Positions 2,081 through 14,608 of a DNA stretch of 27,553 nt are shown piece by piece; position 1 is the first letter of the stretch, and each line of letters starts with the position of its first letter. The stretch lies in the IMG/VR virus record IMGVR_UViG_3300029653_000015; one strand, given 5' to 3'. This stretch comes from a virus. Lineage: Duplodnaviria > Heunggongvirae > Uroviricota > Caudoviricetes. Both the position numbers and the translations under genes were made by a program. Below the pieces are notes generated by a model, which was not told the DNA's origin, did no database searches, and saw only the letters and a program-made list of their open reading frames with translations.

Positions 2081-3073
2081 ATGGGTTTTTCATCAGCCCG
2101 AAATTTGGGAAGGGACATATCGGCAGGATTTTCCCCACCACGTCGCATGCCGATTTCGGAGGCTGTTAAAAAATTCATGCGTGTTCCCAAGGGGGCTGGT
2201 AACTCGGTGCCATGGGATCCTGAACTGACACCCTACATCATTGAGCCCATGAACTGCCTGGCATCGCGTGAATACGATGCGGTGATTTTTGTTGGTCCTG
2301 CGCGAACAGGGAAGACCATTGGTCTGATCGATGGATGGATTGTCTATACCATCGTTTGCGATCCTTCGGACATGCTCGTTGTGCAGATGACCGAAGATAA
2401 GGCCCGCGAGCATTCTAAAAAGCGCCTCGACAGAACGTTCAGAAGCAGTGCTGCGGTAAAGAAAAGAATGAGTCCACGTCGTAACGACAATAATGTCCAT
2501 GATAAGACGTTCAGGGATGGCTCGTTCCTTAAAATTGGTTGGCCCTCGGTCAACATTATGTCGTCGTCGGATTACCGGTTTGTCGCCTTAACCGATTACG
2601 ACCGTTTTCCGGAGAATATCGACAGCGAGGGTGATGGTTTCTCCCTGGCCTCAAAACGTACCACCACATTTATGTCCGCCGGGATGACTCTGGTGGAGAG
2701 CTCGCCGGGACGTGACATCTGCGATAGCAAATGGCGACGTAAGTCGCCTCATGAAGCGCCACCGACGACTGGTATTCTTTCCCTTTACAATCGTGGTGAC
2801 CGCCGCCGCTGGTACTGGCCATGTCCGCACTGCGGTGAATATTTTCAGCCAGCTATGGATGCCATGACCGGCTACCGTAATGAACCGGATCCCTTTAAAG
2901 CCAGTGAGGCGGCGTATCTACTTTGCCCGCACTGCAGCGGCATTATCACTGCGGAGAAAAAGCGTGAGCTCAATAGTGCAGGAGTCTGGTTGCGTGAAGG
3001 TCAGGTCATTGATCGTAACGGCAACGTTTCCGGTGAACCGCGCCGCTCCCGTATCGCCAGTTTCTGGATGTAG
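2081..3073 (+). CDS. terminase large subunit, N-terminal ATPase part (gene interrupted by the inserted element)
   Basis: AGGAGG RBS. Walker A-like GPARTGKT. Zinc-finger-like CPHCGEYF and CPHCSG. Ends ...RIASFWM then TAG exactly at the insertion junction. Continues in frame with 13496..14608 if the insert is removed. Confidence 0.8.
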   Translation: MGFSSARNLGRDISAGFSPPRRMPISEAVKKFMRVPKGAGNSVPWDPELTPYIIEPMNCLASREYDAVIFVGPARTGKTIGLIDGWIVYTIVCDPSDMLVVQMTEDKAREHSKKRLDRTFRSSAAVKKRMSPRRNDNNVHDKTFRDGSFLKIGWPSVNIMSSSDYRFVALTDYDRFPENIDSEGDGFSLASKRTTTFMSAGMTLVESSPGRDICDSKWRRKSPHEAPPTTGILSLYNRGDRRRWYWPCPHCGEYFQPAMDAMTGYRNEPDPFKASEAAYLLCPHCSGIITAEKKRELNSAGVWLREGQVIDRNGNVSGEPRRSRIASFWM

Positions 3074-3234
3074 GGTACATTTCTTACCTGTTTTTATGTT
3101 CTGGTGTCGTTTTATAGTCTTTTCAATGAGTTGTGATTTTTTGAGTTTCCTCTCTTTACTTGATAATGAGTTAGTTTATCGCTTGTTATCGACTTGAATG
3201 GACTACATGACGGACTAAAAAATGAGGGCGATAG

Positions 3235-4473
3235 ATGTCGGTAAAGCCATTAACCGTGACTGAAGTTAAGGGGATGAAACCACGTGAAAGGGACTATGCC
3301 GTTTATGATGGGTTCGGTTTATTGCTGAATGTGAGTAAAGCAGGTGGGAAAGTGTGGCGTTTCCGTTATAGCCATCCGATAACGAAGAAACGGCAGACAT
3401 ACACGATAGGGCGTTTTCCTGAATTCTCACTCGCGGAAGCACGGGAAGTACGTGATGAACTTCGGCGAATGATTGCACGTGGAGTTGATCCAGTGACAGA
3501 GAAGAAAAATCGTAAAATTGAGATGGCGCTAAAAAATCTACAGACATTTGAAGTCGTTGCTAATGCATGGTTCGCTTTTAAAAAAGGATCGGAGTTGAGG
3601 AAACCTACGTTGTATAATATCGAATATGAAGTATATAAGTATCTTGTTCCTTTCTTTGGTAAATACAGAATAGATAAAATTACAGCACCATTAGCAATTA
3701 AGGCACTGGATGCCGTATCTGATAAAAACGCGCTGCAAAAAAAATTAATATCAAGATTAAATGAAATCATGAATTACGCTGTAAATTGTGGCGCATTGAA
3801 AATAAATCCATTGCTTAAAATAAAGACAGCATTCACTGGAAAGAAAAATAAATTATTAGCCGCGTTACCTATAGAAAGATTACCTGAATTTCTGAGCTGG
3901 TGGGATAGTGTGCCTCATAAGTATCAAATAGCTCACAATGCGCTTTTATTCCAGATATTGACAATGGTAAGGCCCGGAGAGGCGATCCAGGCAGAGTGGT
4001 CCGAGATTGATTTTGATTCTGGCTTGTGGATTATCCCCGCGCATAAAATGAAATGCCATCGTGAACATGTTGTGCCTCTCTCATCACAGGCTATTAGAAT
4101 ACTAAGAACAATGCAGGAAATAAAAAGAGGGCGTTATATATTTTTTTCCTCCAGAACAAAAGATGCTCCTATGGGGAGGAATACTATCAATACCCCAATT
4201 GCTGCCAGTAAGTTCAAAGGGATTGTAACGTTACATGGTTTTCGTTCGATGTGGAGTACACTTTTAAATGAGGAGGGTTTTAACCCTGATGTTATTGAGG
4301 CTGCATTAGCACATAAAAGTGGTGATAAAATAAGAGATATTTATAATAGAACTACTTATTTAGAACAACGCAAAATTATGATGCAATGGGTAGGCGATTT
4401 TTTTGATGAGGCGAGAAAAGGGGTAATTAATAGATCCTGTGGTAAGAAAGGTTTGAGAATAGTAAATGGTTGA
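3235..4473 (+). CDS. int: tyrosine integrase, P4-type (N-terminal arm-binding domain)
   Basis: 412 aa. N-terminal LTVTEVKGMKPRERDYAVYDGFGLLLNVSKAGGKVWRFRY is typical of the P4-integrase arm-binding domain. C-terminal catalytic region has LHGFRSMWST (His/Arg) and a tyrosine near the end (RDIYNRTTY). GAGGG RBS. AT-rich codon usage differs from the flanking prophage. Confidence 0.9.
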   Translation: MSVKPLTVTEVKGMKPRERDYAVYDGFGLLLNVSKAGGKVWRFRYSHPITKKRQTYTIGRFPEFSLAEAREVRDELRRMIARGVDPVTEKKNRKIEMALKNLQTFEVVANAWFAFKKGSELRKPTLYNIEYEVYKYLVPFFGKYRIDKITAPLAIKALDAVSDKNALQKKLISRLNEIMNYAVNCGALKINPLLKIKTAFTGKKNKLLAALPIERLPEFLSWWDSVPHKYQIAHNALLFQILTMVRPGEAIQAEWSEIDFDSGLWIIPAHKMKCHREHVVPLSSQAIRILRTMQEIKRGRYIFFSSRTKDAPMGRNTINTPIAASKFKGIVTLHGFRSMWSTLLNEEGFNPDVIEAALAHKSGDKIRDIYNRTTYLEQRKIMMQWVGDFFDEARKGVINRSCGKKGLRIVNG

Positions 4474-4485
4474 GGAGTTCAGCAA

Positions 4486-12763: not shown

Positions 12764-13249
12764 ATGGATCGTGAGTTGAAAAATCTGATGCTGAACATTA
12801 ACCAACTGGCGGCAATAGCAGGTATATGTCGTCAGACTGCGGCGGCAAGGCTGAAAAACATCCAGCCAGCCGGAGGACATGACAAGCTGAAACTCTATCG
12901 GGTGACTGACATTCTGACCTGTTTTCTTGATCTTCCCGTTCCGGCATCACTGGAAGAAATGGAGCCACATGACCGCAAGGCTTGGTATCAGTCTGAACGT
13001 GAGCGCCTCAAGTTCGAACAGGAAACGGCGCAACTCATACCCGCCGATGATGTGCGAAAAGAGATGGCTATATGGGGGGAAATCGTAAGCGAGGAACTGG
13101 CAAAACTCCCCAATATTCTGGCACGTGATGCAGGGCTTAAACCGATGGCAGTAAACAGAGTGCAGTCAATTATTGACGATTTGTGTAATCAGATTATCAG
13201 CCGGATGGTAAAAAATGACGCAGTGAATGAGGATGTAAAACAGGCATGA
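12764..13249 (+). CDS. terminase small subunit homologue, satellite copy
   Basis: Start chosen at ATG 12764 with AGGAGGGG RBS. The central and C-terminal region (KAWYQSERERLKFEQETAQLIPADDV...IDDL) is homologous to the helper terS (KDWYQSENERIKLEKEQRKLIPVDEV...IDDL). The N-terminal ~60 aa are unrelated. Confidence 0.6.
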   Translation: MDRELKNLMLNINQLAAIAGICRQTAAARLKNIQPAGGHDKLKLYRVTDILTCFLDLPVPASLEEMEPHDRKAWYQSERERLKFEQETAQLIPADDVRKEMAIWGEIVSEELAKLPNILARDAGLKPMAVNRVQSIIDDLCNQIISRMVKNDAVNEDVKQA

Positions 13250-13495
13250 TAATGACCGACGCCGTGATCCGCCGTGCCACCGGAATCAGACTACCAGAAG
13301 GTAAACAGAAGGCCACGCAGTCGGGCAGCGTCATCGTGTTAATGCATGGCGGCGTATTCAGCTTTTAATTAATATTGCTGCCTTTTTCTTTTTTTTATCG
13401 CTTAGGCAGGTACTAAATCTTGGACTATGTGAATGGGGTTACAACTAAATAGTACCTTATAATCATTTAGTTACCTTTTATTTACTTCTTCCTGG

Positions 13496-14608
13496 ATGGA
13501 AGGGCCAGCTGCTGCGTATCAGACCTGGGCGCAACTGGTTTACAAATTACTGACTGCAGAACAGGAGTATGAAGCGACAGGAAGCGAAGAAACACTCAGG
13601 GCGGTTATCAACACCGACTGGGGATTGCCTTATCTTCCTCGTGCCAGCATGGAGCAACGAAAAAGTGAACTGCTTGAGCAGCGGGCAGAGCCAGTTCCTT
13701 CCCGCAGTGTGCCGGATGGCGTTAATTTCCTTGTGGCGACAGTGGATGTGCAGGCGGGACGTCATCGCCGTTTTGTGGTTCAGGTAACGGGCTATGGCAG
13801 TCGTGGCGAACGCTGGATTATTGATCGTTACAATATCATGCAGTCATTGCGCAGTGACTGCGACGGGGAGAGCCAGCGAATTGATCCGGCCAGCTATCCG
13901 GAAGACTGGGATGTCCTGCTGACGGATGTTTTTCATAAAAGCTGGCCGCTGGCCTCCGATCCTTCTCAACAAATGCGACTGATGGCAATGGCGGTGGACT
14001 CCGGCGGTGAAGACGGGGTCACTGATAATGCCTATAAATTCTGGCGTCGTTGCCGTCGTGATGGCCTTGGTAAACGTATTTACCTGTTTAAGGGCGACAG
14101 CATCCGGCGCGCAAAACTGATCACCCGTACATTCCCTGATAACACCGGACGAACGGGCCGACGGGCGCAGGCCGCAGGTGATGTGCCGCTCTGGCTTCTT
14201 CAGACGGATGCACTGAAAGACCGGGTGAATAACGCGTTATGGCGTGACTCGCCAGGTCCCGGCTATGTGCATTTCCCTGACTGGCTGGGGAGCTGGTTTT
14301 ACGACGAACTGACGTATGAAGAGCGGAGCAGTGACGGGAAATGGAGTAAGCCGGGTCGCGGTGCCAACGAAGCCTTTGACCTGATGGTGTATGCCGAGGC
14401 TCTGGTCATTCTGCATGGATACGAAAAGATCCGCTGGCCGGATGCACCGGAATGGGCGAGCCGGGAAACCTGGCTGGAGTGTGTCCCGGACAGTACCGAA
14501 CCGTCACCCTCACCGGAACCGGTATCCACGCCTGTTAAAAAACAAAAACGGAAGAAAACAGTAACTGACGATGTTAACCCCTGGCTGACTTCCGGAGGAT
14601 GGTTATGA
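13496..14608 (+). CDS. terminase large subunit, C-terminal nuclease part (downstream half of the interrupted terL)
   Basis: The frame opens exactly at the right junction (CTGGATGGAAGGGCC). VATVDVQAGRHRRFVVQVTGYGSRGERWIIDRYNIM and NEAFDLMVYAEALVILHG resemble the lambda gpA C-terminal region (RYEMRVWGWGPGEESWLIDRQII, NEALDCFVYALAAL). Confidence 0.8.
   Translation: MEGPAAAYQTWAQLVYKLLTAEQEYEATGSEETLRAVINTDWGLPYLPRASMEQRKSELLEQRAEPVPSRSVPDGVNFLVATVDVQAGRHRRFVVQVTGYGSRGERWIIDRYNIMQSLRSDCDGESQRIDPASYPEDWDVLLTDVFHKSWPLASDPSQQMRLMAMAVDSGGEDGVTDNAYKFWRRCRRDGLGKRIYLFKGDSIRRAKLITRTFPDNTGRTGRRAQAAGDVPLWLLQTDALKDRVNNALWRDSPGPGYVHFPDWLGSWFYDELTYEERSSDGKWSKPGRGANEAFDLMVYAEALVILHGYEKIRWPDAPEWASRETWLECVPDSTEPSPSPEPVSTPVKKQKRKKTVTDDVNPWLTSGGWL

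Follow-up and report, generated by a model that had tools for sequence, protein, structure and literature searches.

How can a prophage package its genome when its large terminase gene lies in two pieces? The question is raised by IMG/VR virus record IMGVR_UViG_3300029653_000015, a stretch of 27,553 nucleotides of caudoviricete DNA (hereafter, the window), in which two parts of a GpA-family large terminase gene (terL) are separated by a 10.4-kb insert. The insert is very probably a satellite of the phage-inducible chromosomal island (PICI) type embedded in its own helper, placed by a P4-type integrase at the sequence CTGGATG in the GpA terL of a lambdoid prophage of the Tritos/cdtI type. Such helper-embedded PICIs (HE-PICIs) were described by Tommasini, Mageeney and Williams (NAR Genomics and Bioinformatics 2023, PMC10111431), terL targets included. 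The element is therefore a further member of a published arrangement rather than a new kind. What is new here is its integrase lineage and its GpA target site, both of which lie outside the founding survey.

A first-pass annotation of the window, made from the letters alone, had read the open reading frames (ORFs) on either side of the insert as the N- and C-terminal halves of one TerL, and had noted that recombination between the CTGGATG copies at the two junctions would give an intact gene. Both claims held. Pfam assigned the ATPase domain to the first ORF and the nuclease domain to the second (13496..14608, 370 codons, opening at the ATG of the core). Joining 2081..3070 to 13499..14608 gave an in-frame gene of 2100 nt encoding 699 amino acids (aa), with no internal stop. 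In this reconstructed TerL, GpA_ATPase (residues 40-303) and GpA_nuclease (residues 325-643) lie on a single chain. Among the checks that the annotation had proposed were a continuous alignment of the joined protein across the junction and an uninterrupted terL at the equivalent place in other genomes, and these two turned out in its favour. The joined protein aligned in one piece and over 100% of its length with the TerL proteins of phages Tritos (99.9% identity), HannyBb (99.6%), and cdtI (99.4%). At the DNA level, 600 nt of the joined junction (300 per side) were 100% identical, without a break, to intact terL in at least 12 complete E. coli genomes (e.g. LF82), and the same segment was covered to at least 80%, as an intact site, in 1386 of 5426 complete E. 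coli genomes.

The cut falls at codon 330 (F-W-M/E-G, the slash marking the junction), about six residues inside the GpA_nuclease domain; under the naming scheme of Tommasini et al. this would roughly be site A:GpA_nuclease:6. The identity block common to both junctions is only 7 bp. A chance arrangement is implausible because the joined gene is identical to intact genes and does not merely share a short repeat with them. Judged from these alignments, the insertion is precise, and no target sequence was lost. Excision would be expected to produce the repaired terL junction GCCAGTTTCTGGATGGAAGGGCCAG, in which GCCAGTTTCTGGATG meets GAAGGGCCAG, and a satellite attachment site (attP) with the junction TTACTTCTTCCTGGATGTAGGGTACATT, in which TTACTTCTTCCTGGATG meets TAGGGTACATT.

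As long as the satellite is in place, terL consists of an ATPase-only ORF, closed by a TAG that the insert supplies, and a promoterless 3' part. RefSeq annotates both parts as pseudogene fragments, so routine annotation hides the arrangement. One could suppose that the two parts work as separate polypeptides, an ATPase and a nuclease started from the core ATG, such that the prophage is not terminase-deficient at all. The 3' part does open with that ATG, and the cut falls essentially between the two Pfam domains. No Shine-Dalgarno-like sequence, however, lies upstream of 13496, and every intact TerL homologue is a single chain, in keeping with the RefSeq verdict on the fragments. We rejected this explanation as highly improbable. 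An assembly artefact or chimera, in favour of which we found nothing, is refuted by the recurrence of the same junctions in dozens of independent complete genomes and can be dismissed with even greater confidence.

Except for the insert, the flanks of the window are collinear with the linear genome of phage Tritos (OV696610.1), at 96-99.7% identity (Table 1), and the satellite is missing from that phage. All helper head and tail ORFs in the window are open, 96-98.7% identical to those of Tritos, and in the same order. Base 1 of Tritos, at GGGCGGGAGCGT, aligns to position 1349 of the window, and the helper cosN was therefore placed there; we take GGGCGGGAGCGT to resemble the cohesive end of lambda. 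The composite of helper and insert would amount to ~56.8 kb, or 122% of the Tritos genome (46.4 kb).

The same insertion recurs elsewhere. Six further complete E. coli genomes have satellite ends that match those of the window at 96-100% identity, with the junction interrupting the same codons (SFWM/EGPAAA). The terL DNA around the junction belongs to at least three alleles across these E. coli loci, and the upstream neighbours of the prophages differ. The same terL junction, with TAGGGTA on the insert side, is present in Salmonella enterica (integrase 75% identical) and Rahnella aceris (68%). That the same ends are found in several terL alleles, and also in other genera, speaks for integration that is recent and has happened repeatedly. 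Altogether, the integrase/attachment-site (int/att) module occupies 98 places in 90 of 5426 complete E. coli genomes, including those of the Shiga-toxin-producing serotypes O157:H7, O121, O45, and O103, where prophage mobility is medically relevant. Some genomes carry the module at two places, which suggests two occupied helper prophages per cell; presence in terL was not confirmed for all 98 places.

By the logic of the arrangement, the prophage would be without a complete terminase until excision, and the insert would act as an active switch. This reading is supported by the signs of repeated integration and by analogy with the founding HE-PICI, Eco567.11capE of E. coli NRG857c (hereafter, 11capE). 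Measurements on 11capE showed the composite excising first, then replicating, and the satellite leaving only late; the same cis-regulatory logic was proposed there (PMC10111431).

We propose the following course of events. After induction, the Q-antiterminated late transcript of the helper would run from terS through the 5' part of terL into the co-oriented int and alpA genes. Between the terL stop and int there is no terminator-like site; crude consensus scans of the plus strand of 3071..3234 returned neither a terminator-like nor a promoter-like site. Int and the AlpA-like excisionase would then remove the satellite late in the cycle. Excision would restore terL, such that terminase for both partners would appear only once the satellite is free and replicating. 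The restored TerL, together with the helper's portal and tails, would package the satellite by means of its cos sites, while the satellite's TerS-like and capsid proteins may bias packaging toward satellite DNA, perhaps in smaller heads. Lodging in terL would thus tie the satellite to an enzyme that both partners need. As neither genome could be packaged before the satellite leaves, the satellite would set the timing of packaging and travel with its helper. Prophage prediction is affected too, given that a prophage whose 'broken' terminase earns it a score of defective may be fully inducible.

Several points weigh against so active a role. The promoter and terminator searches were crude consensus scans, and induction by read-through, a redirecting of packaging by way of the TerS-like protein, and the formation of small capsids are steps that we infer. 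The exact attP junction of the element had no match in viral or metagenome contig collections, and a search of the satellite against 50,697 phage records matched cos and terS segments only, with no satellite genome among them. Relatives also show decay. E. coli UTAK-5 (L002), the closest relative at the int-side junction (99.8% identity over a 400-nt attL query), has an IS66-family element in the satellite capsid-protease gene (25593..28009) and a frameshift in the DUF1441 terS of the helper (14673..15202), and in the O121 lineage the helper capsid gene is interrupted by an internal stop. The elements of E. coli EC42405, SCU-125, and A20 look intact. The decay, the missing attP, and the truncated look of many HE-PICI helpers (PMC10111431) would all fit a stranded remnant, left by one or a few integrations and no longer excised, in a prophage that is permanently terminase-deficient and turning cryptic. 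In the window, however, int, alpA, the replication, capsid, and TerS-like genes, and all structural genes of the helper are open, and the flanks are nearly those of a viable phage. The spread of the same satellite ends over several terL alleles and other genera likewise speaks against a remnant. We therefore regard a stranded remnant as improbable and favour an element that still excises.

Table 1. Features of the window (27,553 nt) and their coordinates.
Feature	Position	Strand	Details
Helper, Tritos 45034..46360 (right end)	1..1348		98.1% identity
Helper cos region	1310..1552	+	cosN cohesive end GGGCGGGAGCGT from 1349, then cosB-like leader up to helper terS start
Helper, Tritos 1..1722	1349..3070		99.7% identity
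Helper small-terminase-like gene, DUF1441	1533..2072	+	Pfam 1.7e-44; Tritos counterpart annotated as terminase small subunit
terL 5' part	2081..3073	+	330 codons, complete GpA_ATPase domain (Pfam); C-terminus SFWM, then TAG from insert
attL core CTGGATG	3064..3070	+	TAG directly after
Satellite	3071..13498	+	10,428 bp; G+C content 47.1% vs 52.8% in flanks
P' arm of attP and int leader	3071..3234	+	doubled GGACTA-N6-GGACTA at 3200..3217, +133/+145 from core centre
P4-type tyrosine integrase	3235..4473	+	412 aa; Arm-DNA-bind_3, Phage_int_M, Phage_integrase (Pfam)
AlpA/excisionase-like helix-turn-helix protein	4486..4689	+	67 aa; PHROG 66 'excisionase and transcriptional regulator'; weak HTH_17 match
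Bro-N / anti-repressor-like protein	4749..5330	+	Pfam Bro-N; PHROG 2593
YlcI/YnfO-like small protein	5939..6118	-	divergent from replication operon; YlcI/YnfO family gene annotated at equivalent minus-strand place in related satellites
Icd-like protein	6318..6521	+	PHROG 6196; annotated at equivalent position in L007 and L008
Three small ORFs	6514..7157	+	PHROGs 340, 5146, 340
DUF4222 protein	7372..7671	+	Pfam/PHROG
RepA-family helicase with AAA_25 domain	7668..9083	+	Pfam/PHROG
Iteron cluster	9082..9296	+	at least 7 copies of (A/G)GTGAGGA, one inverted; directly after RepA helicase gene
PHROG 1231 protein	9285..9536	+	PHROG
SSB	9533..9955	+	Pfam/PHROG
Satellite cos copy 1	9989..10231	+	cosN at 10028; helper-like cosB leader
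Small ORF	10383..10592	+	upstream of capsid fusion
ClpP-like prohead protease / major capsid fusion	10589..12505	+	Pfam/PHROG
Satellite cos copy 2	12529..12610	+	cosN at 12568; leader unlike helper's, then satellite TerS-like gene
TerS-like DUF1441 protein	12764..13249	+	161 aa; Pfam/PHROG
P arm of attP	13250..13491	+	GGACTA at 13422..13427 (-73 from core centre); TTTATCGCTT at ~13393
Helper, Tritos 1713..14318	13489..26085		98.7% identity
attR core CTGGATG	13492..13498	+	second copy of core
terL 3' part	13499..14608	+	GpA_nuclease domain plus C-terminus (Pfam)
Helper head/tail genes	14599..27553	+	adaptor, lambda-type portal, protease-capsid fusion, cement protein, Z, U, tail tube, tape measure, distal tail genes (Pfam)
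Helper, Tritos 14354..15778	26129..27553		96.2% identity

The gene content of the insert bears out two further statements of the first-pass annotation, that the insert is headed by a P4-type integrase and that it probably depends on this kind of phage. The integrase has the three expected domains (Table 1), is full length, and retains the conserved motifs RPGE, HGFR, LAH, and IYNR, which we took as the catalytic boxes. Nearly all assigned satellite genes are co-oriented with terL, the single exception being the short YlcI/YnfO-like gene on the minus strand. The terminator scan placed a strong terminator-like hairpin at 4703..4723, downstream of the AlpA-like gene, and the promoter scan placed a sigma-70-like site at 6180..6208, ahead of the Icd-like gene. 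The iteron cluster is probably the replication origin of the satellite. No TerL, portal, connector, tail, or lysis genes were found in 3071..13498 by the ORF list and Pfam/PHROG scans, and Rfam searches at gathering and E-value thresholds returned no credible P4-type CI/seqA RNA (C4, isrK). By this anatomy, the insert reads as a cos-packaged Gram-negative PICI that would need a phage of this type to supply TerL, portal, and tails.

What the insert does carry for packaging resembles the genes of the helper. The protease-capsid fusion is 56% identical to that of the helper (16078..18297), with 41 gap positions, most of them in one linker block. A stretch of ~35-40 residues between the protease and capsid domains of the helper protein is missing from the satellite protein, and this shortened, scaffold-like segment might alter the size of the capsid. 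For the TerS-like protein, only a 75-residue stretch in the C-terminal half could be aligned with the helper TerS (48% identity); the N-terminal half did not align. In lambda, the N-terminus of the small subunit Nu1 binds cosB and its C-terminus binds gpA.

The satellite also contains two co-oriented cos copies, 2540 bp apart, that flank its capsid-protease module. Over 214 nt, leader included, copy 1 shares 87% identity with helper 1339..1552; its identity to Tritos 1..204 is 89%. It retains the helper-type leader up to the position equivalent to the helper terS start. Copy 1 may stay usable by the helper's own TerS, while the satellite TerS-like protein and copy 2 may steer TerL onto satellite DNA. 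Paired cos copies were also seen in the related loci L001, L002, L004, L005, and L097.

These packaging features bear on a further explanation, in which the element is an integrative island that mainly tames the prophage, or defends against it, by disabling its packaging, and is not itself transferred by phage. Insertion in terL does disable the phage, and related satellites carry toxin-antitoxin or defence-like cargo (BrnT/BrnA in the Rahnella aceris element, DUF262/HEPN in 11capE). Two helper-type cos copies, a capsid-protease homologue, and a TerS homologue, however, make sense only for an element that is packaged. The copy in the window, moreover, had no defence cargo by Pfam/PHROG scans, the PADLOC library not having been run. 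We consider a purely defensive island very unlikely, well below the stranded remnant, and retain the packaged satellite as our interpretation.

The configuration of the element agrees in most respects with that of the published HE-PICIs. It lies inside terL of a Tritos-type prophage with nearly all assigned genes on the plus strand. HE-PICIs lack a replacement sequence in attP, such that the target stays disrupted until excision; here, too, TAG comes directly after the core. The four-zone gene order is likewise present, with int and the AlpA-like gene in the integration zone, Bro-N in the Bro zone, the DUF4222, RepA helicase, and SSB genes in the replication zone, and the capsid-protease and TerS-like genes in the late zone; the Icd-like gene stands between Bro-N and DUF4222. 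As in 11capE, a homologue of a helper head gene has been captured, and the helper-like cos segment shared with the helper (214 nt at 87%) compares with 258 bp at 90% in 11capE. The two elements differ in that the window's satellite has a TerS-like gene, which 11capE lacks, whereas 11capE (L003) carries DUF262/HEPN genes, cargo of a kind that Pfam/PHROG scans did not reveal in the window's copy.

The integrase and its arm sites set the element apart. The founding survey listed 491 further HE-PICIs at 14 sites that are cognates of nine lambda late genes (PMC10111431). Its cut-off was an integrase score of at least 400 bits against the 11capE integrase, which delimits a single clade (PMC10111431). 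The integrase of the window scores 84 bits, at 25% identity. Attachment-site arms of the surveyed clade carry a doubled tgTGTATTGCa at -81 and +132 from the attP centre (PMC10111431). In the window, no match like this published motif (TGTATTGC) was found within ~240 nt of either att core, and its total count was not above chance. In its stead, GGACTA-N6-GGACTA stands at a similar distance, and the spacing of the GGACTA copies (+133/+145 and -73) is close to the published geometry (-81/+132). The doubled motif occurs in 8 of 102 loci compared, once in each and always just upstream of int; one of the eight (L094) has an integrase 63% identical to that of the window and a different target. A further sequence, TTTATCGCTT, is found in both arms (~13393 and ~3177).

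The target differs as well. HE-PICIs at Terminase_1 sites likewise interrupt the large terminase gene of the helper. All surveyed terL sites, however, belong to the Terminase_1 family (A:Terminase_1:132 and 245/246; PMC10111431), with cores such as AATATCACGA, integrases of the 11capE clade, and mainly Klebsiella and Arsenophonus as hosts. Neither the string 'gpa' nor the attL sequence TTCTGGATG occurs in the supplements of PMC10111431, and a GpA site is not among its site names. Further literature searches returned no description of the GpA site or of a second late-gene integrase clade.

Other satellite families share parts of this plan. EcCICFT073-type cos PICIs are alike in size, in the int-alpA and replication modules, and in packaging by means of the helper cos. 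EcCICFT073 itself redirects packaging through Rpp. The element described here lies inside its helper and has its own DUF1441 TerS-like protein, whereas EcCICFT073 is chromosomal, apart from its helper, and without terS (PMC10111431). The general features of Gram-negative PICIs (~10-15 kb, int, alpA, replication genes and origin, cos, no lysis or tail genes) are all present, and packaging itself would follow from them. Likeness to satellite P4 extends to the Arm-DNA-bind_3/DUF4102 architecture of the integrase and to the Icd-like and AlpA-like genes. The characteristic P4 set (Sid, Psu, Delta, Epsilon, and CI RNA immunity) was not found, as Pfam/PHROG scans of the submitted ORFs named no Sid, Psu, or Delta and Rfam no C4 or isrK. 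Unlike that of P4, moreover, the helper here is lambdoid rather than P2, and the target is a phage gene rather than a tRNA gene. Capsid-forming PICIs (cf-PICIs) bring a complete set of head and packaging genes and rely on their helpers for tails alone. The element resembles them in having its own major capsid protein and prohead protease; the complete set is not present, given that portal, TerL, and connector genes are absent from 3071..13498. Regulated gene integrity is also familiar from prophage phi10403S in Listeria comK and the skin element in Bacillus sigK. In those switches, as here, an integrated element keeps a gene in two parts until programmed excision rejoins them. The gene split here, by contrast, is part of a second mobile element, and it is presumably the inserted element that profits from the arrangement.

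To place the integrase, we compared it with its relatives. It belongs to a cluster of 657 sequences at 95% identity, and its homologues form a graded series in the protein database search. All relatives compared scored below 91 bits against the 11capE integrase. The window's integrase is nearer to that of an island at tRNA-Pro (39% identity) than to that of 11capE. Genomic context was inspected for 12 integrase clusters, several loci being seen from the int side only, without confirmation that the target gene is split. All 12, from 95% down to 45% identity, lay inside prophage late-gene clusters, co-oriented with the neighbouring late genes. Their targets are ~8-10 different places across the late genes, and their hosts are Escherichia, Salmonella, Klebsiella, Rahnella, Lelliottia, Raoultella, Enterobacter, and Pantoea.

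Among these clusters (identity to the window's integrase in brackets), GpA terL is targeted at codon 330 in Salmonella (P0004, 75%) and Rahnella (P0008, 68%), and at about codon 195 in Lelliottia (P0010, 60%). In Klebsiella (P0019, 55%), a lambda-type GpA terL is entered at about codon 334; the sequence there, SFHIW/SAY, looks like the same protein stretch as SFWM/EGP, as judged by eye only. Two further clusters lie 93 codons into terL. One of them, from E. coli (P0033, 49%), has TerL_nuclease in the 3' part. For the other, from Salmonella (P0022, 56%), a Terminase_1 match was not obtained, and the terL family was deduced from the Terminase_2 terS neighbour and a layout as in P0033. The remaining targets are an S78 protease-capsid fusion in Salmonella (P0009, 63%), the lambda-like tail region after FII in E. 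coli (P0014, 58%), a PF09950 major capsid gene in Raoultella (P0040, 51%), the position just after a DUF2213 head gene in E. coli (P0041, 50%), the baseplate region after a sheath-initiator gene in Enterobacter (P0052, 49%), and the position directly after the portal gene in Pantoea (P0060, 45%). An integrase scan over one genome per species gave only relatives at no more than 40% identity, which shed no light on targets.

On pairwise scores, it is likely that this integrase founds a second clade, P4/CP4-57-like and with a tropism for prophage late genes, that is independent of the clade described in 2023. If so, the helper-embedded lifestyle arose at least twice and is considerably commoner than the published estimate. 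Should the wider pattern hold, targeting of late genes would be a recurrent, convergent strategy of satellite integrases that extends beyond one clade.

Relatives of the satellite backbone were also encountered outside terL. In E. coli EC-107 (L005, NZ_CP043217.1), the replication/late module forms an ordinary island at tRNA-Pro, between yejM and yejO (4741..14618). It shares the RepA helicase, SSB, capsid-protease fusion, and DUF1441 genes, and its integrase is the one 39% identical to that of the window. A related backbone was deposited as a complete circular plasmid of 10,790 bp from E. coli Z1323HEC0475 (L097, NZ_CP148328.1). Its integrase differs again (42% identical to the 11capE integrase), and the circle is probably an excised or replicating satellite rather than a plasmid. 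By these two cases, the integration module is exchangeable and the backbone can exist as a circle. The Rahnella aceris satellite at the terL site of the window (L091) has cargo at 11512..12178 and 16565..17428, made up of its BrnT/BrnA toxin-antitoxin pair and a pP_pnuc-domain protein.

Two details of the attachment sites deserve mention. The P arm contains an inverted repeat (AACTAAAT and ATTTAGTT, window 13430..13470) ~40 nt from the core, which may bind an accessory protein, IHF or the AlpA-like protein for instance. In E. coli O121 RM8352 (L007), attL (~5742..5753) has an extra T (gtttcTtggatg) and attR (~15938..15950) is one base short (CTTCTTCTGGATG). The two changes amount to a reciprocal shift of 1 nt and agree with a strand exchange on the left side of the TGGATG block; exchange inside TGGATG on excision would leave terL frameshifted.

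Further satellites with integrases 45-63% identical to that of the window (L092-L096, L098-L101, L103, and L104) occupy other late-gene positions. Their head genes match the local type of helper, for example with cap_E, HDPD, and Nu1 in lambda-type prophages and Peptidase_S78 in HK97-type prophages. This correspondence suggests that satellites have repeatedly captured the head genes of their helpers.

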